From the IMG/VR virus record IMGVR_UViG_3300037188_000089, positions 1 through 37,657 of that record: 37,657 nucleotides of DNA; one strand, written 5' to 3'. Shown here in pieces: positions 8,941-30,068 of this stretch. Source of the stretch: a virus (taxonomy: Duplodnaviria > Caudoviricetes). Numbering within the stretch: position 1 is the stretch's first letter; each line of letters opens with the position of its first letter. Under the pieces are notes generated by a model. The model was not told the DNA's origin, ran no database searches, and was given only the letters and a program-made list of their open reading frames with translations. The position numbers and the translations under genes were made by a program.

Positions 8941-9234
8941 ATGAAGAGAAGAGCGTTCTTCGCGGCGTTGTTTGGAGGCGCGATCGCCGCGCCAGTGGCT
9001 GTCAAGGCCGTAGCCGCAGCGCTCCCGGATGGCGTGGCTCTGTTCTCGTGCGCGCATCCGCCGCCGCTCGCGTCGATCGAGGAACCCGTCCTCGAACGCG
9101 CATATGTCCATCTCACGTACGCCTTGGGCTTTAAGGTCGACGGCAGTGATCCGTGGGGGAAACTGCTCGGCCACTCCATGCGCGAAACGCGCGAGCGCAT
9201 TGCCGCACAGATTTTCAACGATGGCCTACTGTAG
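8941..9234 (+). CDS. Twin-arginine-leader mini-protein built from permuted MCP segments
   Basis: MKRRAFF plus hydrophobic stretch; three segments align with the MCP at 15955-16878; TATCCT -10 at 8929-8934, 6 nt before ATG; fits exactly between flanking minus-strand genes. Confidence 0.85.
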   Translation: MKRRAFFAALFGGAIAAPVAVKAVAAALPDGVALFSCAHPPPLASIEEPVLERAYVHLTYALGFKVDGSDPWGKLLGHSMRETRERIAAQIFNDGLL

Positions 9235-9237
9235 CCG

Positions 9238-10407
9238 TCAATACGTGTATTGCGCAAGGATCGCCGCCCCTCCCGCTGGAATCGAGCCAGGCAAGAACAC
9301 AATGAGCATCCCCGACGCCGTGTAGTTCGTCCCGGCCAGCTTCAGCGCTCCGTTCACCGTCACGATGACCGGCGTCAACGCCGGATAGCTCAAGGTGAAC
9401 AAGCCGTTGACGCCGTTCACTGCGCCCGCTGGCGTTTCGCTTCGGAACGTCCCCGCGCCCGTCAATAAGTCATCGTCCGACGAATCAAGCAACACGTTAC
9501 GCGCGATCACGGGACCGCCAGAGCGCAAGAACCGGTCGATGCGATGCTGCCAGTAGCTTTGCTCCAGCATCATGCGCTGGCCTGGCCGTTTGTCGTTCTC
9601 GAGATGAATCATCGCACGGAAGAACGCTGCGTACATCGCTTCGTACGCCGCCGCCTTCGCTAACGACCCGTTCGGCTTTTCTAGCTCTAGATCCGCCTTC
9701 GCCCCGGCAATCAGTGCCGAACTAGAGACGGCCGCAAGCGGCGCATCCGTCGTCGAAGAACCATCGAACGCTTCCGCCACGGCGTCGTATTTGATTGGAT
9801 AGCCCTGCGCGAGCGTGGGAACCGGGTAAAGTAATATCTGCTGAACCGTCGCGCCCGTCTGCCCGTCGACGCCGTCCGGTTGCGGCACGTAGCTCCCGGC
9901 GGGCTCATTCACCGCCAGAAACGATCCCTCTAACTCGCCAAACACGTCTTCGTCGATCGCGTCCAGGTTCGCGCCGTCTACAGGCGAGCTGATCGAGCGG
10001 AGGTTACGGCAGTCGTCCGGCAGTTGATAAAGCGTTTGCGCGAGCCAATACGCTCCGTACGCGGTGCCTTCAAAGGGTCGATCGAGCGTCAGTGACGTAG
10101 CGCTCAGTATCGTCACGGTGTAAACCGGACCATTGCCCAGGAAGAGCTGCCGACCGGACATGGCGGACGTCCACGCCGTACCGACGCCCGTTACCGCCGT
10201 GGAGCCCGTTGTGAGCGTGATCGCTCCCGCGCTGTAAGCCGCCGTCGTTCGAAGGACGGCGCTCGCCTCGATCGCGTGCCAGTTCATGAGCGACAGAATC
10301 AGCTCATAGCGCGCGTTGATGGCGTGATCGATTTGGTCGAGCGAGATCTGCGGGCCTGCGAACTTTTGGAGTAAGAGGCGGATTTGGCCCCAGGAATAAG
10401 ACGCCAT
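9238..10407 (-). CDS. Head-tail adaptor/ring protein paralog 1 with inserted beta domain and C-terminal Ig-like domain
   Basis: Start MASYSWG (10407); AINARY, YQLPDDC, LLYPVP motifs; VTGVGTAWT insert; ETPAGAVNGVNGLFTL tail. Confidence 0.7.
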   Translation of the reverse strand: MASYSWGQIRLLLQKFAGPQISLDQIDHAINARYELILSLMNWHAIEASAVLRTTAAYSAGAITLTTGSTAVTGVGTAWTSAMSGRQLFLGNGPVYTVTILSATSLTLDRPFEGTAYGAYWLAQTLYQLPDDCRNLRSISSPVDGANLDAIDEDVFGELEGSFLAVNEPAGSYVPQPDGVDGQTGATVQQILLYPVPTLAQGYPIKYDAVAEAFDGSSTTDAPLAAVSSSALIAGAKADLELEKPNGSLAKAAAYEAMYAAFFRAMIHLENDKRPGQRMMLEQSYWQHRIDRFLRSGGPVIARNVLLDSSDDDLLTGAGTFRSETPAGAVNGVNGLFTLSYPALTPVIVTVNGALKLAGTNYTASGMLIVFLPGSIPAGGAAILAQYTY

Positions 10408-10412
10408 GGCGG

Positions 10413-11243
10413 TTAGTAACTCTCCCCTGCGTAGATAGCGGCAATTTCCGGCTGCGTCAGAGCGCGGCTGTAGAACCGGACACCGACCGGGCCGCCGCCG
10501 TCCCACCAGCCATTGCCGGTTGTGCCGCAATCCGCCGAAATCCCGCAGCCACCGAGCCGCACAGCGCCGCTCATCGCTCCTGAAGTCGGCGCAGTGGGTA
10601 CGCTGGTCGGGCCCGCCACCAGCACGGCGTTGACATAAAGCGATTCGGTCGATCCGGTGTAAACGCCCGTCACCATCTGCCAGGGGTTTGTCGTGACGCA
10701 GGACGTGTAACCCCCGCTGGACGGTGAAGTCGTGCTGCTGCCCGTCACGAACGTGCCATGCACCACGAAGTTGAAATGCGTGGCCGCGCTATCTGAGCCC
10801 AAATAAAAACCCAAGAGGTAATCGTTATCCACAATGCGCGCGAAACCCGTGGCACTCGGACAGTTCGGCTGCACCCAGGCGCTCACGGTGAACGCGCCGG
10901 TGCCGAGCGTCGGGTTGGGCGAGAGGAGATAACTGTCAGGCGAACCCTTGTTCGAGTAGTAATCCTTCGCGCGCAATTTCCCGACCGCGAGTGGCTGCAA
11001 ACCGCCTATCGCCGTGGCGGTGAAACGATTGCCGCTTTGATCGTAGATCGTCGTCGAATTCCCGCTGCTCGTGGTTGCCGAGGGAAAGTAGAAGACCAGC
11101 GAAGAGTCGCGCAAGGCGTTACTGTTGCTGAAAGACTGGCTGCGCAGGTAGGACGCCCGCGCCACCGGCTGATTGTTGTAGCTCGTGTAGTTTTGCCCGA
11201 ACGCGCAAAAGCAGAGCGCTAAGAAAGAAATGGCTTTGTGCAT
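10413..11243 (-). CDS. LamG/concanavalin A-like lectin domain protein with signal-peptide-like N-terminus
   Basis: YDQSGN, FTVSAWV, WQMVTGVY, SLYVNA, VRFYSRALTQPEIAAIY. Confidence 0.85.
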   Translation of the reverse strand: MHKAISFLALCFCAFGQNYTSYNNQPVARASYLRSQSFSNSNALRDSSLVFYFPSATTSSGNSTTIYDQSGNRFTATAIGGLQPLAVGKLRAKDYYSNKGSPDSYLLSPNPTLGTGAFTVSAWVQPNCPSATGFARIVDNDYLLGFYLGSDSAATHFNFVVHGTFVTGSSTTSPSSGGYTSCVTTNPWQMVTGVYTGSTESLYVNAVLVAGPTSVPTAPTSGAMSGAVRLGGCGISADCGTTGNGWWDGGGPVGVRFYSRALTQPEIAAIYAGESY

Positions 11244-14474: not shown

Positions 14475-14490
14475 TGTGAGTTGTTTTTCC

Positions 14491-14916: not shown

Positions 14917-14920
14917 CGCG

Positions 14921-15916: not shown

Positions 15917-15954
15917 AGTTGTGTCCCCTTCGCAAAAGAAGGCGAGCGAAGCGC

Positions 15955-16878
15955 CTAAGCGCTCGGGCTCGCCGCCAGGCCGTAAAAGCTATTGAAGCCG
16001 GAAGAAAACTGCATCCAGCCGGCCGTCTTCATGGAACGCGATTCGAAGTCAACGCCGTGAACGGTGTTGAACGCTTCGCGATCGTACCAACGGCATTCGG
16101 TTTCGGAGGTGTCCGCCTTAATGCCCCAAGCGTGCGGATCGTTCAAGTAATCCCACACGATGATGTTCTCGAACGAACTCATACCCACGCGTTTTTTGAA
16201 CGCGTTGAGGGCGCGGTTCGCCGTGTCCGGGCGTTCGTCGCCCTTGAGCTGCTCGATGCCCACGAACTCCAGCTCCGGAGGAAGCCAAAGAGTCGTAGGA
16301 ACGATGCGCTGTCTCAGGCCGCGGTGATTAACCGTGCGGCGCATGAGTGTAAGAAGCGCGCGAATCGAGTCCACATCCGGATCAGCCGCGATCGCCAGCA
16401 TGTTCGATTGCACGCCGCCGCCCACTAACGGGTGCGCGGTCGAGAAAAGCGGTACGGCGTCAGGTCCAGGATAGAGGGAACTGAAGCCCATGTTGAAGTT
16501 GTAAGCCGCGCTGACTTCTCGGGTTTCATGAGCCGACTTGCCCAGCTCTTTAGCGAGCTTCGCGAAGACGCCGAACTGGTCGTTATCCATCGCAATCTTG
16601 GTGACCTTGAAGCCAAGACCGTACTGCAAGTGCAGGTACGTTTTACGGAAGCCGGGTAACGGCGTATCGTAACGAACGCCCACGCCTTCGCCAACGACTG
16701 GCACGGTGCCGAAGCCGGTGACCTCTGTCGTTTGCTCAATTGAGCGTTTCGACCCAGCGACACGGAAGAACTGCTGGTATTGGGGAGGGAACTGATTGTA
16801 CCGGTTCATGATGACTTCATCAATCGCCGGCAACATCGAAGTGAGGTTTAAATCGGGTAGTAACTGTCTGACTATCAT
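15955..16878 (-). CDS. Major capsid protein (HK97 fold, Mu gpT-like family)
   Basis: GFGTVPVVGEG.GVRYD, YGLGFKVT, LGKSAHETRE, PLFSTAHPL, LWLPPEL, WDYLNDPHAW, DFESRSMK; AGGAG RBS. Confidence 0.92.
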   Translation of the reverse strand: MIVRQLLPDLNLTSMLPAIDEVIMNRYNQFPPQYQQFFRVAGSKRSIEQTTEVTGFGTVPVVGEGVGVRYDTPLPGFRKTYLHLQYGLGFKVTKIAMDNDQFGVFAKLAKELGKSAHETREVSAAYNFNMGFSSLYPGPDAVPLFSTAHPLVGGGVQSNMLAIAADPDVDSIRALLTLMRRTVNHRGLRQRIVPTTLWLPPELEFVGIEQLKGDERPDTANRALNAFKKRVGMSSFENIIVWDYLNDPHAWGIKADTSETECRWYDREAFNTVHGVDFESRSMKTAGWMQFSSGFNSFYGLAASPSA

Positions 16879-17625: not shown

Positions 17626-17793
17626 CTAAAGGCGAATAGACGAACCGCCGAGCAGGAACGCGATCAGCAGGATGAGCAGGATCGCGCCAAGGCCAATGCC
17701 GAACCCGCCGCGATGGCCCCAACGGCCGTAGCCGTAGTAACCGCCACCGCCGCCGAAGACGACCAAAGCAATGATGATAAGCAGAATAATCAT
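17626..17793 (-). CDS. 55-aa Gly-rich two-TM membrane protein (DUF3309-like), absent from the ORF track
   Basis: MIILLIIIALVVFGGGGGYYGYGRWGHRGGFGIGLGAILLILLIAFLLGGSSIRL; AAGGGGA RBS. Confidence 0.8.
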   Translation of the reverse strand: MIILLIIIALVVFGGGGGYYGYGRWGHRGGFGIGLGAILLILLIAFLLGGSSIRL

Positions 17794-17805: not shown

Positions 17806-18453
17806 TTACTGTTCGGGCGGCCCTTCGCCGCGTTCGACGCTCACGCCCATCGCGTGATCTACGCCGTGCTTATTGACTGTTTCGCCTGGCCGCAAGAGTT
17901 CCAGCCCCATGCCTTTAGCCTGGGCGCGCAGCGCTTCGACCGCCTGCGCAGACTCATCGGTGATGTGACTGAGTTCTTCCTGCGAGTCTTTTACAACCTG
18001 GTTGCGTCGCCGCAACGCAATTCGCTCCGGGATCTCGCCGAGCACCATCGTTCCGAACCTCACCGGATCGCCTGCGCGGTCTTTCACGATGCGGTAGTCC
18101 CGGGTACCGAGGCGTGCGTTGACGGTGCTCGATAGTAACTTCACCGCGAAGCCAGGCTTCTGATACTGACGCTTCAGCGCTTCGAGCGGATCGCGCGTAC
18201 CGAGCGGATCATGGTCGAGATCGCCCCAGGCGTCCAGGTCTTTTTCCTTCTGGTCCAAGCCCATTTCCACTTTGGGGTAGCCGCTGGCCGCGCGTAAGGC
18301 ATCGAGTTCAAGCTGCTTCGCGAGCAGCTCTTCGTTCGATGGCCCGACGTTAACGTGCGAGAACGCCGCATCGGGCGTTGGGATAGCGACGCCGGCGGCC
18401 AGGATGGCTGCCACGTGAGCCGCTTGTTTCTTTGCTGTGTGTTGATTTGCCAT
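17806..18453 (-). CDS. Conserved head-module protein between scaffold and decoration genes
   Basis: Start MANQHTA (18453); KPGFAVKLL..DYRIV..VRFGTMVLGEIPERIA.RR motif. Confidence 0.65.
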   Translation of the reverse strand: MANQHTAKKQAAHVAAILAAGVAIPTPDAAFSHVNVGPSNEELLAKQLELDALRAASGYPKVEMGLDQKEKDLDAWGDLDHDPLGTRDPLEALKRQYQKPGFAVKLLSSTVNARLGTRDYRIVKDRAGDPVRFGTMVLGEIPERIALRRRNQVVKDSQEELSHITDESAQAVEALRAQAKGMGLELLRPGETVNKHGVDHAMGVSVERGEGPPEQ

Positions 18454-18457
18454 GACT

Positions 18458-19225
18458 TTATACCTGACTTCCGGTGTAAACGACACCCTTCTGCGCGCGC
18501 GCTTTGTACGCCTCTTCCGACACACCCATCTGTTCGCAGAGATTCTTCTGGAAGGCGTCCAGTTCGTTATCGTCTTTGGCCGCCGCCGCCTTGCCGCCCT
18601 TGCGCCCGGTGTCGCCACCCGCTGCCGCCGCGTGCGCGTCGATATCGTCTTGCTGCGCTTTTGTGACGATCTTGCCAGCCTTCACGCCGTCCAGATAGGC
18701 ATTATTAGCTGCTTGGCGCGTGGCGATGATGTGCGGCGTGCCGGCGTCGATCAGGAGCCGGTAGTGCGTAGCTGTTTGCTTGAATAACTCGCTTTTCGGG
18801 TCCAGCAGGTCCGGGTATTCCTTCGTGAGCGCCGCTTCGTCGGTGAGTTGCCGGGCGCGCGTCTCGATCGCCGAAGCGAGCTCCGCCTTTGTCACAAAAC
18901 CGCTTTTGGCGACCAGTTCTGTGAGCCCCTTGCCGCCTTTCTTGGACATGACCTCGATCGGGTCTTCCTCTATTTCTGGAGTCTCAATCGGGGTATCCGC
19001 CTTCTTTTCCTTGCCCGAGTGCTTGGCTTGTTCATGCCAGTAGCGCGCCGCTTCGTCCTTCTCCGCCAACTGCGCGGCAAAAGTCGTCTCCTTCGCGGCG
19101 CCCTCGGCCTTGAGTGCGTCAATTTGCGTTTGCAGCGCAGCCATCGCCGCTGTATTGTCTTCGCCGCCGCCGGCGCCGCCCTCTTCGCCAGCCTCGGCGC
19201 GCAAAAGCGTCCAGTTTCTAAACAA
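18458..19225 (-). CDS. Capsid scaffolding protein
   Basis: LLRAEAGEEGGAGGG leader, acidic coiled coil, EYPDLLDPKSEL, C-terminal LDAFQKNLCEQMGVSEEAYK; AAGGAG before the TTG start. Confidence 0.8.
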   Translation of the reverse strand: MFRNWTLLRAEAGEEGGAGGGEDNTAAMAALQTQIDALKAEGAAKETTFAAQLAEKDEAARYWHEQAKHSGKEKKADTPIETPEIEEDPIEVMSKKGGKGLTELVAKSGFVTKAELASAIETRARQLTDEAALTKEYPDLLDPKSELFKQTATHYRLLIDAGTPHIIATRQAANNAYLDGVKAGKIVTKAQQDDIDAHAAAAGGDTGRKGGKAAAAKDDNELDAFQKNLCEQMGVSEEAYKARAQKGVVYTGSQV

Positions 19226-19568
19226 GTTTCAACTCCTTGCCAAACGCCGTGCCTTTGTAGAGGTCCGCCCGCTTGCGGCAGTAGGACTCTTTGCAGCTAG
19301 AACAGGCCACGGCGTATAGGCCATCAATGGGGATCACGTACATCCGGGTAGTCGGTTGATTGTGCAAATCGTTCAGTGTTTCGAGCGAAGCGCCGCAGAG
19401 TTGGCAGCCGTTTGGCGTCGCGCCGGCGAGAACATTTAGTGCGTGATAGTGCCAGGCGTGGCAACGGAGGCACATGCGTTGCCCAGTGGAAAGCGTCATC
19501 AGATCTGTGGGCGCGACCTGGCGGCTGCACCAATGACAGCGCGAAGCGACGATAATTTGCGTGGTCAC
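19218..19568 (-). CDS. Cys-rich double zinc-finger protein
   Basis: Four CxxC pairs: CHWC, CLRC, CQLC, CSSC; coupled to both neighbours. Confidence 0.7.
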   Translation of the reverse strand: MTTQIIVASRCHWCSRQVAPTDLMTLSTGQRMCLRCHAWHYHALNVLAGATPNGCQLCGASLETLNDLHNQPTTRMYVIPIDGLYAVACSSCKESYCRKRADLYKGTAFGKELKLV

Positions 19569-19894
19569 TGACTTATAGGTCCTGGGGGGAGGTGCGGCGG
19601 CATGGGGATTGAATCTCCGTCGCGCATTAGCGGGTGTTCGCGCAAGTAGTCATAGATTGCAGTTTTTGCCTCGGGCGTGAATTCCAGACCAACTACCGGC
19701 GCTGTAGCTTTTCTTCGATGGCCACCGCCGCGGCGTCTTTGCAGTTCAACGAGGATCGGCCCGAGCTTGGCTTCTAGTTTCTCGTCGAGCGCTTTGAGTT
19801 TACGGTCGAGGCTGCGTAAGATGAAGCCGATGACGCACAGCGCCCCGCCGTTCAGTAAAACGATAAGCGCATACGCCAGTAGATCGCGTTTCAT
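19565..19894 (-). CDS. Single-pass membrane protein with coiled coil
   Basis: N-terminal hydrophobic helix then LDRKLKALDEKLEAKL. Confidence 0.6.
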   Translation of the reverse strand: MKRDLLAYALIVLLNGGALCVIGFILRSLDRKLKALDEKLEAKLGPILVELQRRRGGGHRRKATAPVVGLEFTPEAKTAIYDYLREHPLMRDGDSIPMPPHLPPGPISQ

Positions 19895-19909
19895 TTGCTT
19901 GCTTTCTCT

Positions 19910-20122
19910 TTAGCCAACTACCGTGATGCGGTCGCCAATCGACAGCGGGACGCACTGGAATAGACCGAATGTGGCCACGCCCACGGCGCGGTAATGAATA
20001 CCCGGCAGCAGCAGCACGCCGCCCGCGGTGCCCTGCGACCAGAACACTAGTCCGGTCGTTAGTGGCAGCGGCAACAGCAGCGTGTAAAACGCCTGCACGT
20101 CGACGACGGTGTACGTTTTCAC
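19910..20122 (-). CDS. Small beta protein resembling phage Ig-like decoration domains
   Basis: GVLLLPGIHY...GDRITV pattern resembles the C-terminal domain of 9238-10407; GTGA coupling. Confidence 0.45.
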   Translation of the reverse strand: MKTYTVVDVQAFYTLLLPLPLTTGLVFWSQGTAGGVLLLPGIHYRAVGVATFGLFQCVPLSIGDRITVVG

Positions 20123-20358
20123 GCCACGTACCGCCAGGGATGGTTTTTCGATTTGCTGCGAATGTGCTCGTGAAAAAACTTCCCGATACTCGGCGCTTTC
20201 ATGAGCGCATCCGCCTTGACCTGATCCACGTCGTCATACTCGGCAACAGCGCCCTTGCGGTTCGGCGTGCCATGGAACTCGACGTGTAACTTCTGCGTTG
20301 CCGGATCGTAGCCGACGCTCTTCAGCGCCGTGCTTTCGACATTCGTGCGTTTCAGCAT
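20119..20358 (-). CDS. KTSC domain protein
   Basis: VESTALKSVGYDPATQKLHVEF...YDDV...LMKAPSIGKFFHEHIR. Confidence 0.92.
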   Translation of the reverse strand: MLKRTNVESTALKSVGYDPATQKLHVEFHGTPNRKGAVAEYDDVDQVKADALMKAPSIGKFFHEHIRSKSKNHPWRYVA

Positions 20359-20570
20359 CCGTCCCTCGGCGGCGGCACCTTGATCGGCCGCCGCGTTACT
20401 TCGATTCGGTACTCGTCCGTGAACTTCTGCAAATCGGCGACGATCCGCTTAGACTCTTCGAGGAGCGCAGGAGCTACGCGATCATCAATGAGGTGCGTGC
20501 TCGCGACGTGCGCAACAAGCGCCATCTGCGTCGTTACCAGCCGCTTTAGAATGTAAGCAAGACCGGGCAT
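20352..20570 (-). CDS. Hypothetical protein
   Basis: Abuts the acb2 stop and overlaps the KTSC start. Confidence 0.55.
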   Translation of the reverse strand: MPGLAYILKRLVTTQMALVAHVASTHLIDDRVAPALLEESKRIVADLQKFTDEYRIEVTRRPIKVPPPRDGC

Positions 20571-20783
20571 TCAAAACCCATCCGGTTTCGTGATGGCTCT
20601 CACCCAGGCCATGATTCCTTGCTGTATGTTGGTTCGCGCGATCGCGAGCCAGCGCTGGTCTACGCCAGGAATGGCGCCGCTCGCTTCGATCGCTACGCCC
20701 ATCTTTTCGCCCTGCGTTTTGATGTCGTTGATGAGATCAATCTCGGCATCGCTCAACGGGCGGTACCCTTTGATTTCTGGCAT
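20571..20783 (-). CDS. acb2: Anti-CBASS cyclic-nucleotide sponge Acb2-like protein
   Basis: IKGYRPLSDAEIDLINDIK...RWLAIARTNIQQGIMAWVRAITKPDGF matches the recalled Acb2 signature (KGYR.LS..EI..MN..K; RWLAI..T..Q.G.M...RA.A.P..F). Confidence 0.9.
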   Translation of the reverse strand: MPEIKGYRPLSDAEIDLINDIKTQGEKMGVAIEASGAIPGVDQRWLAIARTNIQQGIMAWVRAITKPDGF

Positions 20784-20784
20784 C

Positions 20785-20994
20785 TCAGCAACCCGGCATC
20801 GAGCCGGGCGGCGGCACGCCAGGCGGCAGCGGCCCGCTCGTGGGACCGCCCGCCATCGGCGGACCAGCAGGAGGAGCCATCTGAGGGCCGGGCGGCGCCA
20901 TCGCCATCTTCATGGCGGCTTTGTGGCCGGGGTGCTTATCGCCGTGGTGAACCATGGCGGCGAAGCCGGGATGACTGCTCACTTTTCTCGCCAT
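20785..20994 (-). CDS. Small Pro/Met/Gly-rich protein with HPGF/HPGH repeat
   Basis: Start MARKVSS (20994) immediately after the upstream stop. Confidence 0.55.
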   Translation of the reverse strand: MARKVSSHPGFAAMVHHGDKHPGHKAAMKMAMAPPGPQMAPPAGPPMAGGPTSGPLPPGVPPPGSMPGC

Positions 20995-20995
20995 G

Positions 20996-21460
20996 TTAGT
21001 GTTTGACCGGTCCTGACCGCACCGGCTGGGTGTCGCCCTGCGACGGGTGGTGCTCGGGATATTCGGCATCGTTCGGCAGATGCTCGGGATCTGGCTGAGC
21101 CGCCGCGTTCTGCGTTAGCTGGTCGGATACGTCGTGGAGGGCTTGTTGCCGTCTCATTGCGACCTTACCGTCCGCTTCCTCTGCCGTTCCCGTTTGTCCG
21201 TACGGTTCGTAGGCTGCTTCTTGCTTCTCCGCGTGCGCGTCAACTTCTTCTTTCTTTGGGTCCGCGAACACGTCCGGCAGCAAATCATGCCGCAATGTAG
21301 CCGCGTCTTCTTCGCTGACGGTGATGACATTTCCGGATGTCAACTGTACCCCGCCATTCTTAGCAACATGCACGACCTGGGTGAGATTGACAATCTCCGC
21401 CCCGACGACATTGCCCTCGTCGTCGCGGTCCACATTCACGGGAACAAACACATTATCCAT
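20996..21460 (-). CDS. Acidic hypothetical protein
   Basis: Likely start MDNVFVP; small beta domain plus acidic tail; follows motif copy 3. Confidence 0.65.
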   Translation of the reverse strand: MDNVFVPVNVDRDDEGNVVGAEIVNLTQVVHVAKNGGVQLTSGNVITVSEEDAATLRHDLLPDVFADPKKEEVDAHAEKQEAAYEPYGQTGTAEEADGKVAMRRQQALHDVSDQLTQNAAAQPDPEHLPNDAEYPEHHPSQGDTQPVRSGPVKH

Positions 21461-21504
21461 AGTCAGGAAACTCTTTCTTTTCCGGCGCATCGCTTGCGCG
21501 CACG

Positions 21505-21518
21505 TCCGGTTAGTCGGA
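21505..21518 (-). promoter_or_regulatory. TCCGACTAACCGGA motif copy 3
   Basis: Exact 14-mer containing the upstream gene's TAA; 21500-21522 is the exact reverse complement of 30591-30613. Confidence 0.7.
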
Positions 21519-21779
21519 GTGCCGAGCCGCAGCTTCCAACTCCATCTCTAGAATAGGGGCGATTTGCTCAACCCGGCGCAGCGCTTCGACTGAGCCCTGC
21601 GCTTTGCGCCAGGCGACTGCGTCGGCCGACGTTTCGCACGCTTTTACCGCCGCTTCGAGCAGTATTCCAAGGCGAGCCTGGTGGACCTTCCAAGCGCGTG
21701 ACTCGGTCATATCGTACAAATCACGCAACGATAGCGCCGCTTCGCCGCGGACGGCTACCACTTTCCCGGTTATGTGCAT
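21510..21779 (-). CDS. Small helical post-portal protein
   Basis: Start MHITGK (21779); ESRAWK...RKAQGSVEALRRV pattern common downstream of podoviral portals. Confidence 0.65.
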   Translation of the reverse strand: MHITGKVVAVRGEAALSLRDLYDMTESRAWKVHQARLGILLEAAVKACETSADAVAWRKAQGSVEALRRVEQIAPILEMELEAAARHSD

Positions 21780-22414
21780 ACTTTCTTTCGCCGTCCGCCC
21801 GAGGGCGGCCGTCCGTCGAGCCACCACGGATTTGGAAACAGCCGATACTTTTCTACCCGAGTCAAGAGACGGGGCCCACGGTGCCGAAGACGCTCCGCGC
21901 GGCGGATGACGGCTAAAGCGACAAGCATGTCCTGGCGCGTTTGCAGTTCGGCGGCAAGTACCCAGTTCGGGCGGCGCCGCTTCTTTGGCTTTTCGCGCCG
22001 CCAGATGCGCCATAAATCCGACGTAGTGCGAACATACTCTCGCCAGTTTGCCATCGTCAGGACCGCCGTTCCGCGCGGTATTTTAGGACGCGCCGTCAAT
22101 TCGACCCAGCGCTCCATATCGTCGTGATAGCGGCGATGTTTCGGCTTACACAGAAACTTCGTGAGGAATTCCGCCTGCAGGTGCAACAGTTCATGCACAA
22201 TCGATACCTCCAAATCTTTGTTGCCCAGCCAATCTTTATCGATCTTCACCGGATCGAGCAGCGTGAGCTTCGCGCTCTTGTACTTCGGCAGCGCGTTCGC
22301 GGACGCCAGCCCGTCTTCCGTTTGGTCGACGACGACGGCGGTGATCTCCCAGTCCTGCAGGCGCAGCCGCTTCTGCCACTCCGGGATAAGGGCGATCGCT
22401 TCGAGCGCGGTCAC
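21770..22414 (-). CDS. Phage zincin-like metallopeptidase (HEXXH) with basic C-terminal extension
   Basis: GTGA-coupled start 22414; WQKRLRLQDWEI and EVSIVHELLHL motifs. Confidence 0.75.
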   Translation of the reverse strand: MTALEAIALIPEWQKRLRLQDWEITAVVVDQTEDGLASANALPKYKSAKLTLLDPVKIDKDWLGNKDLEVSIVHELLHLQAEFLTKFLCKPKHRRYHDDMERWVELTARPKIPRGTAVLTMANWREYVRTTSDLWRIWRREKPKKRRRPNWVLAAELQTRQDMLVALAVIRRAERLRHRGPRLLTRVEKYRLFPNPWWLDGRPPSGGRRKKVCT

Positions 22415-22620
22415 CGTAGAACAACCTTCCCGTCCTCGAGGTATGCCTGCATGATTGGTTGACCGTAATCCTCTCCATCGGCGTGCCGGACTATCGCAGT
22501 CGGCGGCAGCTTGCGCAGCACCTTGCGGAGATCCTTGACCGTAAAGCCCTCGCGCTGACTGACATGGGCGCCCTCGCGCGCTACCTCTGGGCAACCGAAC
22601 CCGACAACTGGCTTGCTCAT
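22411..22620 (-). CDS. Small phage hypothetical protein
   Basis: TVKDLRKVLRKLPPTAIV motif; coupled at both ends. Confidence 0.6.
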   Translation of the reverse strand: MSKPVVGFGCPEVAREGAHVSQREGFTVKDLRKVLRKLPPTAIVRHADGEDYGQPIMQAYLEDGKVVLR

Positions 22621-22958
22621 ATCACCCCGGAGGCAAGGCCAATCAAGTCGCTTTCGCTTAATCTCCGATGCACCTTGGCGTGTGGATACCTGGATAGAAC
22701 TTCGCCGACAACATCGCGCCCTTCCACCATGAAGTGCTGCACGGCCTTTTCGCCGTGAGCGTTCGTTCCAACAAGCGAACCGCGCTGATAGGCCGCGAAA
22801 CGCTTTATGGTCCTAGTCTCGAAGTCCGTCTGGAATCCTTCCGGCTCGTCGTCACGGACGTAAACATCAGTGATCTCTTCGCGCGAATGGGGCCGCGACG
22901 CCGACAGCGCCGCGCATGTAGACCCAATAACGGCAAGAAGCTCTCTTCGGTTCATCAT
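22617..22958 (-). CDS. Twin-arginine-leader mini-protein carrying an MCP C-terminal-like motif
   Basis: MMNRRELLAVIG leader; YVR-x9-DFETRTIK matches MCP YDR-x9-DFESRSMK without gaps. Confidence 0.7.
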   Translation of the reverse strand: MMNRRELLAVIGSTCAALSASRPHSREEITDVYVRDDEPEGFQTDFETRTIKRFAAYQRGSLVGTNAHGEKAVQHFMVEGRDVVGEVLSRYPHAKVHRRLSESDLIGLASGVI

Positions 22959-22961
22959 TGT

Positions 22962-25199
22962 TTACCCTGTCGGCGGCAATCCGCTACCCGGCGGCGGCTT
23001 CGCCCCTGGCGGCGGTGCGCCCTTGAATTCATGCGGCTTGATGGGCGGCGCCACACTCCCCGCGAGCGGCATCGGCGGCGTGATCGGCGTTCCGCCCGGC
23101 GGCATCATCACGCCCGGCGGCAGTTGCCCCATGCCCGTGCCAAGCGACGCCGCGGGATTCGCGCCCGTCGCCGCCGCTTGCTGAACGATTCGCTCCGTGA
23201 TCGCTTGTACCAGCTTTTTCTGTTCGAGCTGGTGAATGTGATCGACGTAATGCGCCTTCAACGCCGCGATGGCGTCTTTGTCGGCGTACTGATCTTCGAC
23301 CGCCAGGTTCAGATCCTTCATGTGGCGAACCATGTGTAACTGGTCGTTATCCTGCGGATTGACTTCGATCGCTTCGCCCTGCTGCATCCGCGCCCACTCG
23401 TCCTTCGGATTCAACGGCAGATCGCCCGCCGGCGGTTGTGGAACCAGATCGCCAAAGTCCGGATCGCCCAGAGCCTTGTGCGCGTCGTTCGTGACTTTCC
23501 AGAGTGCGGCCGGATTCTGAACAATGAGCGGATTCTGTAAGTCGAGCTGATAGCGCGCGAGCGTGTTCTCTTTGTCCGCGGCTCGACTCCACACCGACGT
23601 GGCTAGTTTCAAGCGAAAGTCGTAGCTGCCGTTGCGCTCCGCTTTCGCGAGGTACGAACCGCCCTTGCCTGTGTCGAATAGCCCATCGGCATCCTCTTCC
23701 GTCACGCGGAAGAACGTCTCGGCGTCGCCGAATTGAAACTCCAATATCCAGAACTTCTGAAAGACGAGCGCGTAGTCCTCGCGCAAGATGGTTGTGTCCA
23801 TCGTCATGCGCAAGTTGCCCGCCTGCATCAGCATCGCCTGGCCGCTCGCCGTGCGTGGCGCGTTCGGACGATCCGACGCGCGGCCGTTCGCCTGGTCGGT
23901 TTCGCCCGTCAAGCGTTCGAGGTACGACAAGACGACCTGCTCTTTCGCCGCGACCGCCTCCAGGTCTGCCGTGAACTTCATTTGGTTCATGTCAGTGGCG
24001 GGATTATCCATCGGGATCATATCGCCTGGCCGCAGTCTAAATTGCTTCGGCGCAAACCCCTGCGCCGGCTTGTAGCCAATCGGCGGCGATACGACTAGAT
24101 CCAGCGCATCCGATCCTTTGTTGTGGTTTGAGCGGATCTCGTCTTCGCTGTCGATCGATAGCGCCATCATGCCGTCACACCAATACGATCCGTCTTTTAC
24201 GTAGCTGGCTTCGACGAACGGACGCGGGAACGGATCGGCAGGATAGAGCTTCCGCAAATCTTGCGCGCCGATCATCAGGTAAGCCATGTCCGGCAGAACG
24301 CGGAAGACGATGTCGCTCTCGTTCAACTGCCGCTTGTCAACGTCGTATTCGTCGGCGTCGTGTTGGCCTTTCTTCAACATGCGCCAGCGCCCGTACCATT
24401 CGAGCATCAGCAATGTGGAGCCCGACGACATGCCGCCCTCTTGCTGGACACCCTCGGCGGCGTCTTTCTGGCGCTTCGTCTGATCGCCTTCGACCTCGCG
24501 TTTCTGGCGATTGTATGACTGCATCAGGATTTGCTTGTAGTTCTTTTTGATGTTGGTGTAGCGTCCAGCCTGCTCGCCGTCGAGAAGCTTCTGCGGCGTG
24601 ATCGCCACCTTGCGCACGAACCACGTAAAATCGTGCAGCGTTTCGGCGTCTTCCGCCGGAAACACCATGTCGTCGCCTTCCATCACCTGAAAGTCTGGGC
24701 CTTTGTAATAGGTGTTGGTTTGCGTGCCGTCCTTCGTCGTTTCAAAGTCGAAGCTCTTCTTTGTCCACGGCGTATAAGCGTGAACGCGGCCGAAGATGAT
24801 CTTGTAAAGCTCGAACTGCAATAGCCGATTTGTGAGCTTCATCGACTGAAACACGCGCCACGTCATGTAAGCGCCGATCTTCGCATCGTTGCGGTAGTCC
24901 GATGGTCCGTTCGGAACCGCGGTTATCTCCGCGTCGTCGCCGAAGATCGAATCGGCGTTGCGCGCCCACTTCTGCGAAGCGAGCCACTTGCACACCGGAA
25001 CCGGATAATTGCTCTTGTCTTCGTCGCCGGGCTTCGGTGGATCGACCAAACAACGCCAGCGACGAAAGAAGAGCGCTTGTTTCGCCATGCGTTTTGCGTG
25101 ATCGTCGAGCGCGTTCCGATAGTCCGCCATCACGCGATTGGCGAGCCGCGAGCTTTCCTGGTCGCTGAGCTTGATCTGGTACTGCGTTTGGTCAGGCAC
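22962..25199 (-). CDS. Portal protein (P22/N4-like)
   Basis: 745 aa after TerL; KSNYPVP, PRPFVEASY..GSYWCDG, LRPGDMIP, ERLTG, RTASG, Pro-rich tail. Confidence 0.9.
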   Translation of the reverse strand: MPDQTQYQIKLSDQESSRLANRVMADYRNALDDHAKRMAKQALFFRRWRCLVDPPKPGDEDKSNYPVPVCKWLASQKWARNADSIFGDDAEITAVPNGPSDYRNDAKIGAYMTWRVFQSMKLTNRLLQFELYKIIFGRVHAYTPWTKKSFDFETTKDGTQTNTYYKGPDFQVMEGDDMVFPAEDAETLHDFTWFVRKVAITPQKLLDGEQAGRYTNIKKNYKQILMQSYNRQKREVEGDQTKRQKDAAEGVQQEGGMSSGSTLLMLEWYGRWRMLKKGQHDADEYDVDKRQLNESDIVFRVLPDMAYLMIGAQDLRKLYPADPFPRPFVEASYVKDGSYWCDGMMALSIDSEDEIRSNHNKGSDALDLVVSPPIGYKPAQGFAPKQFRLRPGDMIPMDNPATDMNQMKFTADLEAVAAKEQVVLSYLERLTGETDQANGRASDRPNAPRTASGQAMLMQAGNLRMTMDTTILREDYALVFQKFWILEFQFGDAETFFRVTEEDADGLFDTGKGGSYLAKAERNGSYDFRLKLATSVWSRAADKENTLARYQLDLQNPLIVQNPAALWKVTNDAHKALGDPDFGDLVPQPPAGDLPLNPKDEWARMQQGEAIEVNPQDNDQLHMVRHMKDLNLAVEDQYADKDAIAALKAHYVDHIHQLEQKKLVQAITERIVQQAAATGANPAASLGTGMGQLPPGVMMPPGGTPITPPMPLAGSVAPPIKPHEFKGAPPPGAKPPPGSGLPPTG

Positions 25200-25821
25200 G
25201 GCGGGATGCCCTCAGCGGTATTAGTTTTCGGCCGGGCGGCGCCCATGGCGGCGGGGCGTCAATGACGGCGAGCGGGTGCGCTGACTCGCCTCTTCCTAAA
25301 GCGAAGTACTGATCTAACGGAAAGAGCGCGTGTGGCTGCAGTTCGCGAAAGACGCGGCCTAGCGTTTGCTCGATGCGATACGACTCATGGAAGTAAGCGC
25401 CACGGTCCATGTCGAGTTTGGCGCAACATGCCTTCCAATCAGCGCCGAGAAGGTAGTGGAAGCGAAAGAGCCGGTGCTGGGCGATGGTCAGCGAACGCTG
25501 CGCAACCAGGCAGAAGTCCGCGCAGTACTCTTCGTCCTTGCGTCCCCACATTCCCTGCCCGCGGGCGCCGTTGCGATTCTCTAGCGACGCAGCAGAGACG
25601 TGCGCAAACTTGCGATCGAGCGTGGCGAGTGCGCAAAAGCGGTTGTAGCACGCACGAAAGATGGCGCGAAACACACAGTTGCACGGCGTCTCCGCGCCGT
25701 GACGACCGAGTCGCTGTCCAAGACCGAAGCAATATACGCAACTTTGCTGGGCCAGCGCCAATGTCTCGCTGCGCGTCCAAACGGGCAGCTCCGTCGTGTG
25801 TTCGTTTCTTATTGTCTTCAT
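25192..25821 (-). CDS. Zn-finger plus sigma-r4-like HTH protein (candidate late regulator)
   Basis: ATGA-coupled start 25821; CVYC..PCNC zinc site, then LFRFHYLLGADWKACCAKLDMDRGAYFHESYRIEQTLGR HTH-like segment. Confidence 0.65.
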   Translation of the reverse strand: MKTIRNEHTTELPVWTRSETLALAQQSCVYCFGLGQRLGRHGAETPCNCVFRAIFRACYNRFCALATLDRKFAHVSAASLENRNGARGQGMWGRKDEEYCADFCLVAQRSLTIAQHRLFRFHYLLGADWKACCAKLDMDRGAYFHESYRIEQTLGRVFRELQPHALFPLDQYFALGRGESAHPLAVIDAPPPWAPPGRKLIPLRASRRA

Positions 25822-27563
25822 GCGACCTTTAGTCTTCTTCCGCGCTCGTCCGGTAAGTCGGAGGCGGGACGCCGGTAGTTGTCGATCTTCGTCAGCGCGT
25901 CCGGCAAGAGCGGCATCACGATCTTGGGCGGCATCTCTTGAATACCGACGCAAAGCAGCGCCAGGCCGATCACGTCGTCGTCGTGGCAACCATACGCGCC
26001 CTCCGCTTTGCCGTCCGCCTTAATCACAAAGGTTCGGCACTGCTGCTGTGTTTCCGGGTGATGGACGATTAAGGCGCCGGTGCGCAGCGCTTCGTCGAGC
26101 GTGGAGATCATTTGTGGCCGCGTCACTGTCGTCGTCAGGAAGCCGATCAGGTCGGCGCGCTCTTGCGGGTCTTGGTCGGTCGTGCGAATCCGGTGATAGA
26201 TGAGCGTCACTGGATAGCCTATTCGCCCGTCGTCGCCTTTCAGTAGTGCGTCGACCGTCGCCCAGCCGTGGTTATTAATTTCAGGAACAAGCTGTGCCCA
26301 GTTGTAGAAGCTGCCAAGCATCCAAAGCTGCCGTGCGAACTCCGCCGGCGTGAGGCGGGCGCTTAGTCGCGCCACGACTTCGCCCGTATCGCGATCGCCG
26401 ACTTGGGCGCAAGCGAAATCTGGATCCGCTTTGCCGCCGCCGCCTTTGAGAATGTCGATGCCTTGCGCTGAGTCAGCGCCGATGATGTACTGGCGATTGC
26501 GTTCCGGGCGTTTGTAGATCGTCAGTTCGCCGCGTTCGCGCTGAAGGAACCGCAGGCGCTTCTCGCCGCCGATGTCGTCAAGCTGCAAGCCGCCTGTGAG
26601 TCCATCGCGAATGATCGGCATTCGCTCAATCGAGGCAGAATTGAACCGAGGCCGTCCTGATGTTAGCCAGCATTCCTGCGGGTTGCTTGAAAACTCCTGC
26701 TTGAATAAGTCCTCGTCGCCGGTGAGATCGTTGCGAATCTTCCAGCGCCGCCAGGCGAGCTGCGGGAGCGTGAGGTTGTACGTCTCGCGCATCGTGCGCT
26801 CTTCGGGCGTGAGCACCGCCTGGAACGCCGCCGGCGTTGTGTCGTCTTCGGCCAGCGCGCGGACGTATTCAGGATGCTCCCACCAGCCGAAGTACTCCGC
26901 AATCCAATCCGACTCGCCATTTACCGCCGCTTCCCACATCGTGTGGAACTCGGTACCGACGCCCGCCGGCGAACTTTCGCCGATGACTTCGGTGTCCGGC
27001 GTCGTCGGAACGGCCGCCATCACGGAGGCGATGAGCTGCCGCGCGTGATCGCCGTAAAAGCCCAGCTCGCTAAAGTGAACGTTGTGGAGAGTGAACGAAC
27101 GTCCGATGTTCACGCTGCCCGCGGTGTGAATCTTGATCCAACTGCCGTTGTCGTATTCGAGGGCGTCCGTGCGATCGCTGATAAGCTTGGGCAAGCCGAT
27201 CACGCCGCGAAACGGTTTGTAGTTGTCGTGGAAGCGCTTATAGTGGTCGAAAATGTTCTTCGCGCTTTTCGCATCGTGAGCGAGCACGAGCGTATGCTGC
27301 CCCGGCTGCATGATCGTCCGTCGGAAGAAGCGCGACGCGACGTACACCGTGCCCCAGACCTGGCGCGCTTTTAAAAAAAGCAGACGGATAGCATGGCCTA
27401 GCTCCTCTTCGCGCTTGATCCGATTCGCCAGCTTCGTTTGCGCCGGGCCGTGAATCATCGGTACGAGCTGCCCGGCCTTGTTGAGCACCATCAGCGACTC
27501 ACGCGCGAAGATCGCGTCGTCGTTGAAGTCTTCGCGCAACGTTTTAAGATCGAGCGTCTTCAT
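25818..27563 (-). CDS. terL: Terminase large subunit
   Basis: Walker A-like LKARQVWGT, Walker B VHFSELGFY, ESSPAG coupling motif, FKQEF, nuclease IIGADSAQG and HDDDVIGLAL; ATGA-coupled start 27563 (alternative 27653). Confidence 0.95.
   Translation of the reverse strand: MKTLDLKTLREDFNDDAIFARESLMVLNKAGQLVPMIHGPAQTKLANRIKREEELGHAIRLLFLKARQVWGTVYVASRFFRRTIMQPGQHTLVLAHDAKSAKNIFDHYKRFHDNYKPFRGVIGLPKLISDRTDALEYDNGSWIKIHTAGSVNIGRSFTLHNVHFSELGFYGDHARQLIASVMAAVPTTPDTEVIGESSPAGVGTEFHTMWEAAVNGESDWIAEYFGWWEHPEYVRALAEDDTTPAAFQAVLTPEERTMRETYNLTLPQLAWRRWKIRNDLTGDEDLFKQEFSSNPQECWLTSGRPRFNSASIERMPIIRDGLTGGLQLDDIGGEKRLRFLQRERGELTIYKRPERNRQYIIGADSAQGIDILKGGGGKADPDFACAQVGDRDTGEVVARLSARLTPAEFARQLWMLGSFYNWAQLVPEINNHGWATVDALLKGDDGRIGYPVTLIYHRIRTTDQDPQERADLIGFLTTTVTRPQMISTLDEALRTGALIVHHPETQQQCRTFVIKADGKAEGAYGCHDDDVIGLALLCVGIQEMPPKIVMPLLPDALTKIDNYRRPASDLPDERGRRLKVA
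25849..25862 (-). promoter_or_regulatory. Motif copy 4 (TCCGACTTACCGGA, one mismatch) in the terL 3' end
   Basis: 27 nt upstream of ATG 25821, heading the regulator-portal genes. Confidence 0.6.
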
Positions 27564-27823: not shown

Positions 27824-27827
27824 ACCT

Positions 27828-28439
27828 TCATGCCGCTTTGTCCTCGCGCTCTAACTCTGTGCGCATCTTGCGTTTCGCGACCAGCAGCAGCTTATGCACG
27901 CGACTACGCGGAATCCGCCGCTTGGCCGCGATCTGCGTCAAGGATCGCCCGCCAATATGGCCATCGATCACCGCTCCTTCGGTGCGCGTCAACGTCTTGC
28001 GGGCGCGGCCGGCGTCGATGCAAACGACAACGCACTGCTCGCGGTCAATGAGTTCGTCAAGGACAGAAGAGCGATCGATCAGTATCTCAGGAAGGTCGGG
28101 GACGGGATCGATACGTGAGCGCTTGCGGCGGTCGCGCATAACGAACGTGTCCGGCTCTTCGCCGAGCCATTCGCCCGGCATCTGCACATAGCGCCGCGGA
28201 TAACGCGGGCCTTGGAAGTTGTCGATGATCGCGCCGTGAATTCGCAGGCTCGCCCAATTTGCGAAGGTCTTCCCGTGCCGTGGATCGAAGCGATCCGCCG
28301 CTTGGCACAAGCCAAGGTAGCCAGCCGCTAGAATTTCGTCCATTTCGATCCAACGTGGCAAGCGCCGCGCTTCATATCCTGCGATGTTCTGTACTAGGCG
28401 CAGGTGTGACGTGACGAGCTGCTGCTGCGCGGGCGTCAT
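27828..28439 (-). CDS. RNA polymerase sigma factor, FliA/WhiG (sigma28)-like
   Basis: Region 2: HLRLVQNIA..RRLP..DEILAAGYLGLCQAADRFDP..GKTFANWASLRIHGAIID; region 4 HTH: LTRTEGAVI..RSLTQIAAKRRIPRSRVHKL. Confidence 0.92.
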   Translation of the reverse strand: MTPAQQQLVTSHLRLVQNIAGYEARRLPRWIEMDEILAAGYLGLCQAADRFDPRHGKTFANWASLRIHGAIIDNFQGPRYPRRYVQMPGEWLGEEPDTFVMRDRRKRSRIDPVPDLPEILIDRSSVLDELIDREQCVVVCIDAGRARKTLTRTEGAVIDGHIGGRSLTQIAAKRRIPRSRVHKLLLVAKRKMRTELEREDKAA

Positions 28440-28792: not shown

Positions 28793-28938
28793 GTAATCTC
28801 CCGTAGCTCCATCGTCGGCCGCTCGAAGCGTTTGCCTTCGTGCGGGCAACTGCTAAACGTATGGCCGTGCAAGAGAACTAAAGCGATGGTGTGGACTTCC
28901 ACTGTGTCGCCGGGCTTCAAAACCACAACTGTCTTCAT
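28789..28938 (-). CDS. 49-aa hypothetical protein, absent from the ORF track
   Basis: MKTVVVLKPGDTVEVHTIALVLLHGHTFSSCPHEGKRFERPTMELREIT; ATGA overlaps at both ends. Confidence 0.6.
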   Translation of the reverse strand: MKTVVVLKPGDTVEVHTIALVLLHGHTFSSCPHEGKRFERPTMELREIT

Positions 28939-29438
28939 TGCTTCTGTGCCTCGTTGTAGATCAGCGTTAACTGCTCATACGTCACAAGCCGCGGGCCGCT
29001 GTCTTCCGCCGGTGTGAGCTTGCCCGTGAGCTGGGCGATCAGTCTGTAGTTGTGGCGCGCCTGTGAAATTGCCTTAAGCGCGAGCCCAGCGTCCGAAACG
29101 AGGACGGGCCCCAGCTTCTTATCGAGGACCGGTGCGCCGTTTCGATCGAGCAACGGAACGCCGCGCAACGCCGTTTCCATGATGTGCTCGGTGACGGATT
29201 GCAACCGCTCGACGCGGTCGACTAGGTCGACGCCGATGGCTCGCTCTTGCCGTTCTATTGCTTTGGTGACGGCGAGTCTAGTACAATTCAGCTTGTGCCG
29301 GTCGAGCGTTCGCGCACATATTCCGTACAGATTAGCGATGCTGCGATTACTTTTCGTGGGATCGGCGAGCGCACGTTCGATGTGCGCACGCTTCGGATGC
29401 GCGCAGATTTTGCACGCTTTGCTGCTGACGATGGGCAT
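28935..29438 (-). CDS. Putative terminase small subunit
   Basis: CKICAHP zinc/HTH N-terminus (SNRSIANLYGICARTLDRHK), helical middle, ALKAISQAR..LIAQLTGKL; first gene of the packaging block. Confidence 0.6.
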   Translation of the reverse strand: MPIVSSKACKICAHPKRAHIERALADPTKSNRSIANLYGICARTLDRHKLNCTRLAVTKAIERQERAIGVDLVDRVERLQSVTEHIMETALRGVPLLDRNGAPVLDKKLGPVLVSDAGLALKAISQARHNYRLIAQLTGKLTPAEDSGPRLVTYEQLTLIYNEAQKQ

Positions 29439-29531
29439 AAGCTCGTTGACTCAACACTGCGCTTATCCGTCGAGCATAGCTACGATCCTGCCGCTAAAGT
29501 GATTGCCTGCGCCAAAGAGTAGACATCTTCC

Positions 29532-29572
29532 CTGTCAATACTGACAGCTTTACGTGGTGTCCCGATTGTCAG
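29532..29572. promoter_or_regulatory. TGTCA/TGACA operator-like cluster upstream of the TerS-like gene
   Basis: Palindrome CTGTCA-N4-TGACAG (29532-29547) plus GATTGTCAG (29564-29572). Confidence 0.5.
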
Positions 29573-29796
29573 GTTATGTCGATGAATTGCTCGCCAGCAA
29601 GGCGGTCGAGCGCTTCGAGCGACGGCTCATAGCCGCGAGCCCACGCCGTCGCACACACAACGCCCATAGCGAAAGCGTTCTCGAACGATGCCCCGGCGAC
29701 GAGTAGAGCAGTGACGCGATCGAGCGTCTCTTGCGCTGGGGTGTGCCGGCGAAGTTGACGCCGTTCTTTGTCGGTCAACTTGGGTCGGTCTAGCAT
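29569..29796 (-). CDS. Hypothetical protein
   Basis: Overlap-coupled member of a small-gene operon. Confidence 0.5.
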   Translation of the reverse strand: MLDRPKLTDKERRQLRRHTPAQETLDRVTALLVAGASFENAFAMGVVCATAWARGYEPSLEALDRLAGEQFIDIT

Positions 29797-30068
29797 TTGC
29801 TATCGCGATTGAGGGCGACTTGTCGCTCTACTTGCGCCGAGAGCAGCGAAAGGGCAGGCAGCGCGCGGAAGCGTACTTCTATGGCCTCGCATTCGGTAAT
29901 GCGGCGATACTCGCCGTCCGCGGTGCGCACGAAGTATATCCACGATTCGACAAGCTTCGGCGGCGACGGAATCGAGATCGTCTTCGCGCCCGGCACCCAT
30001 AGCAGCCGCTCGGGATCGAGCACGGCGGCGGCGATCATGCCGAAGAGGAATGAACGGCGGTTAGTCAT
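29790..30068 (-). CDS. Twin-arginine-leader mini-protein (third copy)
   Basis: MTNRRSFLFGMIAAAVLDPERLLWVPGAKTISIP leader. Confidence 0.7.
   Translation of the reverse strand: MTNRRSFLFGMIAAAVLDPERLLWVPGAKTISIPSPPKLVESWIYFVRTADGEYRRITECEAIEVRFRALPALSLLSAQVERQVALNRDSKC

Follow-up and report, generated by a model that had tools for sequence, protein, structure and literature searches.

Why should a phage carry small genes that join a twin-arginine (RR) leader to pieces of a virion protein? The question is raised by an uncultured phage, IMG/VR virus record IMGVR_UViG_3300037188_000089 (Duplodnaviria; Caudoviricetes), whose entire 37,657 nucleotides (nt) were analyzed here (the window). A first-pass annotation, made from the sequence alone, had noticed three open reading frames (ORFs) of 92 to 113 amino acids (aa) in unrelated modules, here called genes A, B, and C, that begin with leaders resembling twin-arginine translocation (Tat) signals; their lengths, motifs, and coordinates proved correct. 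By sequence comparison, gene A certainly carries major capsid protein (MCP) pieces, gene C belongs to a large family defined by its leader, and the cargoes of that family are enriched for coat protein. The design is real and large and apparently undescribed. Tentatively, and with less than even confidence, we read these small genes, which couple an RR leader to in-frame virion pieces, as bait-and-remove decoys; individual family members may differ in function.

Three genes with RR leaders

The genes and two others needed to follow the argument are as follows.

8941–9234, plus strand: gene A (97 aa), with a KRRAFF leader and two swapped capsid pieces; recognized by ORF, BLASTP, and codon score
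8941–9015, plus strand: leader of A (residues 1–25), K-RR-A-F-F and 17 uncharged residues
9025–9060, plus strand: A residues 29–40, similar to capsid residues 139–150 (identity at 9 of 12), which form the loop that follows the long helix
9085–9228, plus strand: A residues 49–96, similar to capsid residues 75–132 with 10 residues deleted
8281–8922, minus strand: SU10-type adaptor gene, true start at 8922, back to back with A and 18 nt apart
15955–16878, minus strand: MCP gene, Mu gpT-like, HK97 fold (Pfam PF25209 and PF10124; phrog_371; fold search)
22617–22958, minus strand: gene B (113 aa), NRRELL leader, directly after the portal gene, its stop overlapping the next start
22755–22865, minus strand: B residues 32–68, weakly and marginally similar to the C-terminal strands of the capsid protein (residues 264–299, approximately)
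29790–30068, minus strand: gene C (92 aa), NRRSFL, DPERLLWVPG leader family, start and stop overlapping its neighbors, upstream of a small-terminase-like gene
29964–30068, minus strand: leader of C (residues 1–35), RRSFL, 12 uncharged residues, and a near-invariant DPERLLWVPG.KTI.IP block

When a family leader profile that includes C and excludes A and B was run over 1,374 start-anchored ORFs of the window, these genes gave the three best scores (C, 68.3 bits; B, 11.5; A, 7.5; next, 1.5). The bare RR motif is not rare, because 23 of the same ORFs match a loose RR pattern. As whole proteins, A, B, and C are not detectably alike (z, 0.3 to 1.8), sharing just the RR and a hydrophobic stretch, and none has a Pfam or PHROGs match at an E value of 0.05. 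No relative of A or B was found in the IMG/VR scan, the protein database (near lengths only), or the fetched loci, nor any of B in the Atlas; both are singletons in 5.8 billion proteins. Judged by sequence features, A (with its capsid cargo) and C (by its leader) are clear members of the design, and B is a probable one.

Gene A is an antisense insert with capsid cargo

The minus strand of the window encodes a terminase, a portal-like protein, the MCP, SU10-type adaptors, and tail genes. Gene A is antisense to the entire tail module, which the first-pass annotation had missed, and occupies the space left between the adaptor, whose start is at 8922, and a gene whose end is at 9238. It is absent from both nearest relatives (G001 and G002, with MCPs 86% and 79% identical to that of the window and both classed as proviruses), which join the two flanking genes directly. 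B is likewise absent from G001 at the one junction that was aligned, so that both are optional inserts between conserved genes, as morons are. The codon score of A is +14.0, compared with −9 to −15.5 for the overlapping frames. A longer minus-strand ORF (8281–9174) was rejected because in the relatives the adaptor begins at the codon found here at 8922 and the added stretch has a non-coding score. An assembly artifact is an unlikely origin: one contig, possibly from the source sample itself, spans A with even depth and no differences. By eye, an imperfect inverted repeat surrounds A; the relatives show a plain insertion.

The longer capsid piece of A matches the MCP by BLASTP at an E value of 1e-8 (43% over 58 columns), a score reached by none of 300 shuffles; none of 2,000 shuffles reached the likeness of the shorter piece. 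The order of the pieces is swapped, since A residues 49–96 correspond to MCP residues 75–132 and the preceding residues 29–40 to MCP residues 139–150. In a model of the MCP (mean predicted local distance difference test [pLDDT], 63), the copied parts are a strand (84–93), a long helix (104–132), and the loop after it; from HK97 anatomy, we take the long helix to be the spine helix. A does not hold a complete HK97 fold, merely these two segments. The MCP family is, on this comparison, the origin of the cargo of A and perhaps of that of B.

The donor appears to be the family and not the resident protein in particular. Among 66 MCPs, the resident one ranks 16th for the long piece and 41st for the short piece, and A has no match to its own capsid gene at the DNA level; by these alignments, A resembles the MCPs of relatives at least as closely as the resident one. 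Identity is concentrated at conserved MCP columns (19 of 25, versus 6 of 22 elsewhere).

Genes B and C gave less. The first-pass annotation had held that at least two of the three genes carry parts of the MCP; in this window only A is a sure capsid fragment, the likeness being marginal for B and not seen for C. The BLASTP match of B has an E value of 0.075 and is equaled by 24 of 300 shuffles. Against the 66-MCP profile, B scored 4.6 bits (E, 8e-4; none of 500 shuffles reached this, the best scoring 4.5), with the resident MCP ranking 48th of 66. The capsid likeness of B is graded as marginal; its codon score is neutral (−1.6; GC content, 0.567). The cargo of C had no capsid match by BLASTP, shuffles, or the 66-MCP profile, and no other donor was found. 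A resemblance of C to the tail protein at 1397–4564 (z, 3.5) was dismissed as chance, as 1 of 300 shuffles reached it among 51 comparisons.

We also searched in reverse, from capsid to leader, using 73 loci chosen by MCP alone (63 from IMG/VR and 10 GenBank snippets) plus the window, altogether 17,125 ORF segments, and the 66-MCP profile. Four non-MCP segments had E values below 1: A (4e-7), a segment that overlaps the gene of an MCP (0.093), an ORF that lacks RR (0.17), and L194:17668–17997 (0.38). B was not among the segments at E values below 10. The L194 gene has an RR leader, is an antisense insert in a tail module, and carries the strand and helix also copied in A (10.2 bits, a score that none of 500 shuffles reached); by these features, it is a second, independent case of the design of A. 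At the same kind of site, locus L170 has an antisense RR gene of 35 residues.

A Tat-like leader marks a large family

All three window genes have the RRx-F/L-hydrophobic motif near the N terminus, and RRxF is present in 150 of 150 top family matches, which were chosen by this leader. TatFind requires a hydrophobic region of 13 or more uncharged residues; the uncharged stretch measures 17 residues in A, 15 in B, and 12 in C and at least 13 in 135 of the 150 family members. In 135 of the 150, [AGS]xA precedes D within an alanine-rich region. Of 24 family members compared with TIGR01409, 23 match and 12 pass the cutoff; C scored 13.1 bits against PF10518, whose cutoff is 22.7. Weak PDB matches of the family profile include the leaders of CueO, NapA, and PsbU, and TatC is encoded in both genomes that bear the family leader. 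Atlas models have predicted template modeling scores of 0.21 (C) and 0.46 (B). The motif fits a Tat signal, and so, less clearly, would the uncharged stretch. Tat is reported to accept small, hydrophilic, unfolded passengers and to stall on exposed hydrophobic ones (PMC13673990), and it carries bound partners that lack a signal, the export of PaoA awaiting its partners (PMC4273604).

Searching with the leader profile, as the first-pass annotation had proposed, uncovered a large family with a conserved leader. C, whose leader reads RRxFL…DPERLLWVPG, retrieved 25 relatives sharing the leader only, and a motif scan found 26 IMG/VR, 102 metagenome, and 2 genome loci. A leader-only profile of 38 positions matched 3,411 protein clusters at E values of 0.001 or less and 1,679 at 1e-10. 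Lengths and cargo statistics rest on the best 150 of the 3,411 clusters, which are 46 to 174 aa long with the leader at the start. The exact motif occurs twice in 185,579 genomes, once in a Bryobacteraceae metagenome-assembled genome. The leader of C was not found in 50,697 GenBank phages (two weak matches at an E value of 2), nor was family member P0029 found in plasmids.

Family cargoes are enriched for coat protein

While the leader is conserved, cargo is exchanged among members. We compared 148 members with cargoes of at least 20 residues with the large ORFs of the fetched loci (E value of 1e-3 or less). Thirty cargoes matched: 26 a P22-type coat protein, 1 a P22-type portal protein, and 3 an unlabeled 421-aa protein. 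No match arose from 740 shuffles, and the 11 from 424 control ORFs were mostly duplicates and none of them coat. At 8 bits, a nine-sequence coat profile found 38 of the 148 cargoes but none among 1,480 shuffles and a single one among 424 control ORFs, and one cargo checked against GenBank returned annotated coat proteins (E value, 3e-9). Cargoes selected through the leader alone are thus strongly enriched for coat fragments. These results bear out the proposed architecture of an RR leader plus a swappable virion fragment; a lack of enrichment, which the first-pass annotation had named as refuting it, did not occur. Other donors include, by PHROGs assignment, the terminase large subunit (P0052) and a head-tail adaptor (L110), as well as a tail-nozzle-like protein (L022). 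RR genes that, as A and B do, lack the DPERLLW block adjoin family members, and coat pieces are present in 7 of 17 of them.

The cargo tracks the capsid family of the phage that carries it: a P22-type coat is present in six of seven records with P22-coat cargo (the remaining record being a 16% fragment), and gpT-like cargo occurs in gpT phages. In all three P22-type loci compared, the phage's own coat is the best donor among two to five matches, with 76% DNA identity in one. This pattern, and the position of many members within operons, would suit genes that help their own phage, a membrane-anchored copy of an assembly surface nucleating or tuning head building at the membrane. We consider such a role improbable; the genes are optional and missing from the relatives with 79 to 86% identical capsid protein, the DPERLLW-type profile matches just 3 of 40 capsid-picked records, and cargo positions scatter.

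Arrays of two to four members with different cargoes are present in 25 of 96 loci. Examples with three or four RR-leader genes are L099:3707–5099, L019:8277–10522, L086:1464–2723, and L055; in L086, N-terminal and C-terminal coat pieces lie in adjacent genes. A small ORF without an RR leader (L003:165–665, plus strand) matches the coat C-terminal region at 8.2 bits, and fragment genes lacking the leader may thus exist.

Capture is in frame and several cargoes are under selection

The reading frame was examined in 122 members, after nine pattern matches had been dropped by eye as false (e.g., endonuclease VII). At 6 bits, 25 of 25 coat matches lay in the frame of the leader and none in the five other frames. 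Ratios of nonsynonymous to synonymous substitution rates (dN/dS), calculated for the cargo alone in 20 close, non-independent pairs, ranged from 0 to 0.98, the three pairs sampled best lying at 0.05 to 0.08; purifying selection acts on several cargoes. The coat blocks that were copied gather at profile positions 1–60 and 241–300, independently of conservation (rho, 0.05; uncorrected for kinship). Detection bias toward conserved coat blocks was considered as the source of these hot spots and, at this rho, found unsupported.

In-frame capture bears on two further explanations. In the first, the leader and DPERLLWVPG block would occupy TatC or stall the translocase, the cargo being unfoldable filler from nearby late genes. 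The leader is indeed far more conserved than the cargo, very short cargoes exist (such as that of L170), and late stalling and harm to growth are reported for unfolded Tat substrates that expose hydrophobic stretches (PMC13673990). Against this reading stand the capture in frame throughout, low dN/dS in several cargoes, and arrays with different cargoes; A and B, moreover, lack the DPERLLW block. We consider jamming of Tat unlikely. In the second, the cargoes are functionless recombination scraps decaying behind a selfish, self-expressing leader. The singleton status of A and B, the neutral codon score of B, and the pair with a dN/dS of 0.98 could be understood in this way, and an unsampled donor could explain the excess identity of A at conserved columns. 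Exclusively in-frame capture, the purifying selection that acts on several lineages, reading frames without interruption, and the promoter signature described below all speak against mere debris, to which we assign a slim probability.

Antisense members have a predicted promoter of their own

Members with different upstream sequences numbered 123. A simple codon-based gene caller placed 81 of them in tandem with the gene upstream and 15 in divergent orientation, leaving 27 unclassified; 81 of the 96 classified members are therefore in tandem. A TAnnnT box lies 5 to 14 nt upstream of 11 of the 15 divergent members and 2 of the 81 tandem members (Fisher P, 1e-9), the pattern having been chosen after the data were seen. 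The divergent set includes the added A, L194, and L170; without these three, 8 of 12 carry the box. The background frequency is 1.7%, and 2 of 16 other divergent genes of the same loci have it (P, 0.001). The spacer between box and ATG is 5 to 7 nt in 11 of 11 divergent members. A Shine-Dalgarno motif was found in none of the 15 divergent and 32 of the 81 tandem members. In three Acidobacteria, leaderless genes account for 10 to 19% of genes and are marked by TANNNT some 12 bp ahead of the start (PMC3160421). Because the box lies just before the ATG, we predict that the antisense members, A included, are leaderless units with their own promoter.

8929–8934, plus strand: TATCCT, predicted −10 box of the leaderless A transcript, 6 nt before the ATG, from the class statistics

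This box can be read in two ways: its complement may serve the adaptor gene as ribosome-binding site, either in place of the promoter role or in addition to it. A standard promoter scan at A found no full promoter, and a terminator scan found none adjacent.

The two expression classes also bear on the possibility that the genes are weapons against kin. The fragment would associate with the newly made capsid, scaffold, or portal of a superinfecting relative, phage or satellite; by tethering or exporting the bound subunit, the leader would lower the yield of the rival. The copied pieces, which we take to be the N-terminal arm, long helix, insertion domain, and C-terminal strands, resemble assembly surfaces. 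In addition, A copies the MCP family and not the resident protein (as would B, by its rank), a promoter of their own is predicted for the antisense members, and the phages most closely related are classed as proviruses. The tandem majority, many of them among packaging genes, would nevertheless meet their own capsid, and in the P22-type loci that capsid is the best donor. Poisoning of a rival's assembly comes second to the decoy among our explanations and has a fairly low probability; if correct, it would be a new form of phage-phage competition.

A candidate bait-and-remove mechanism

In the decoy reading that we tentatively prefer, the virion fragment would bind a host factor that recognizes the capsid or another virion protein, presumably an immune sensor, and the RR leader would either keep the bound pair at the Tat translocase or remove it from the cytoplasm. 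Members within operons, such as B and C, are predicted to be made together with neighboring phage genes. Antisense members such as A would be made from their own leaderless promoter and therefore possibly ahead of late lytic expression or during lysogeny. STAND receptors sense virion proteins (PMC13581612; PMC12236752), with sensors reported for capsid, portal, adaptor, and nozzle (PMC13581612), a list that the cargo donors overlap. A short capsid peptide, Gol, can trigger a defense enzyme (PMC9712102). The placement of the majority of members in operons and the transport by Tat of bound partners also favor the decoy.

Several observations weigh against decoys. Avs7, Avs8, and Avs10 bind the A-domain face of the folded capsid monomer, a broad surface (PMC13581612), whereas the copied pieces, mostly coat residues 1–60 and 241–300, leave this face out. 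Short pieces are unlikely to rebuild the fold, the single-sequence model of A (no alignment) having a pLDDT of 57. The list of cargo donors is also simply a list of late genes. About three-quarters of the cargoes, that of C included, had no match in the small reference set; some are merely 9 to 14 residues long; and dN/dS is 0.6 to 0.98 in pairs other than the best sampled. A, B, and C have no TIGR01409 match. Finally, the first-pass annotation had argued for counter-defense from an island shared by one member with acb2.

20571–20783, minus strand: acb2/tad1-family gene (PF24729), context only

This argument fails, because Acb2/Tad1, the only anti-defense family compared, is present in 2 of 26 leader-picked and 4 of 40 capsid-picked records, many of them incomplete, and is not enriched. 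In the window, acb2 is 1.8 kb from B; the intervening genes are also present in the nearest relative.

A bolder version, which we regard as speculative, makes the Tat translocase a disposal chute: recombining virion-epitope baits would export sensors or rival capsid subunits, and antisense leaderless copies would pre-arm the lysogen. If so, the cargo library would be a natural map of sensed or attackable virion surfaces. Thousands of unnamed phage proteins share the one design. As decoys, they would represent counter-defense against virion-protein sensing, which phages are mostly reported to evade by point mutation, and would turn protein export to the inactivation of a target. Under the decoy and poison readings alike, the cargo hot spots single out specific capsid surfaces.

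Relation to known systems

Satellite and prophage proteins that interfere with assembly, namely Sid of P4, CpmAB of phage-inducible chromosomal islands, and Psu, also bind or derive from capsid components and affect the assembly of another phage. To our knowledge, interference proteins of the Sid, CpmAB, and Psu types are folded and dedicated and lack export leaders. Morons are optional inserts of temperate phages among conserved genes, with their own promoter and terminator. A resembles them in being optional, in its place between late genes that are conserved, and in having its own predicted promoter but has no terminator that we could find behind it, is not AT-rich, and has a promoter that would overlap the start of the next gene. 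The cargoes are homologous to pieces of HK97-fold MCPs (Mu gpT-like, PF10124/PF25209; P22 coat, PF11651), yet such pieces, 15 to 70 residues long and sometimes swapped, cannot form the fold.

With Tat signal peptides (TIGR01409, PF10518), including those of the hitchhiker complexes HybO-HybC and PaoABC (PMC4273604), the family shares the N-terminal RRxFL and uncharged stretch. Its passenger is a scrap of virion protein of 10 to 140 residues instead of a folded enzyme, its main subfamily adds the invariant DPERLLWVPG block, and it is found almost exclusively in phage DNA. Gol peptide-Lit and CapRel-SJ46 (PMC9712102) and Avs7, Avs8, and Avs10 (PMC13581612) show that hosts sense virion proteins, once through a short capsid peptide; these are host sensors with natural triggers, and the available parts of the sources describe no separate phage bait gene copying the trigger. 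Anti-defense proteins that mimic DNA (such as Ocr) or antitoxins are also small, optional phage proteins that act by imitation. They imitate DNA or host proteins, and no export leader was found among them in the accessible text of EVADES (10.1101/2025.06.06.658234) and PMC13728456; "capsid" and "signal peptide" do not occur in the EVADES main text. The first-pass annotation had not recognized the design as a described system, and our literature search, which included the accessible text of the 2026 counter-defense review PMC13728456 and of EVADES and excluded supplements and most subscription papers, likewise found no description of the family.

Setting of the window and other genes

Through the protein database and a public run labeled peat metagenome, the window was placed on a 72-kb contig; no RNA data set was listed as containing the sequence. 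This contig starts and ends at window positions 17944–17973; because of this 30-base end overlap, the element is apparently circular, with about half of it outside the window. A run of small genes between portal and scaffold (19218–22958, minus strand) includes acb2/tad1 and a gene for a KTSC protein (20119–20358). The KTSC gene is present in G001; acb2 gave no tblastn match in the locus of either relative.

Directly upstream of the large terminase gene lies a gene for a sigma-70-type factor (27828–28439, minus strand; PF04542, phrog_351), which may drive the late operon, unlike the predicted host-type promoter of A. An ORF for a cysteine-rich protein (25192–25989, minus strand) between the large terminase and portal genes has no family match and is also present in G002. 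Two genes at 33958–35247 (plus strand), of 97 and 304 aa, have N termini like Sec-type signals and resemble morons for secreted proteins; neither has a Pfam or PHROG match. A glycine-rich membrane peptide of 55 aa is encoded just upstream of the capsid-cement gene (17626–17793, minus strand). An NCBIfam search gave no match for it, and we liken it, as an assumption, to host DUF3309 peptides; positions 17716–17762 of its gene are common to many other contigs of the same run. Where the window has a 55-aa gene, G002 (L131:5919–9408) has an insert of about 3.5 kb between the post-scaffold gene and the cement gene. In L156:1048–1203, the last 24 MCP positions are in a different frame, which suggests a frameshift or an assembly error.

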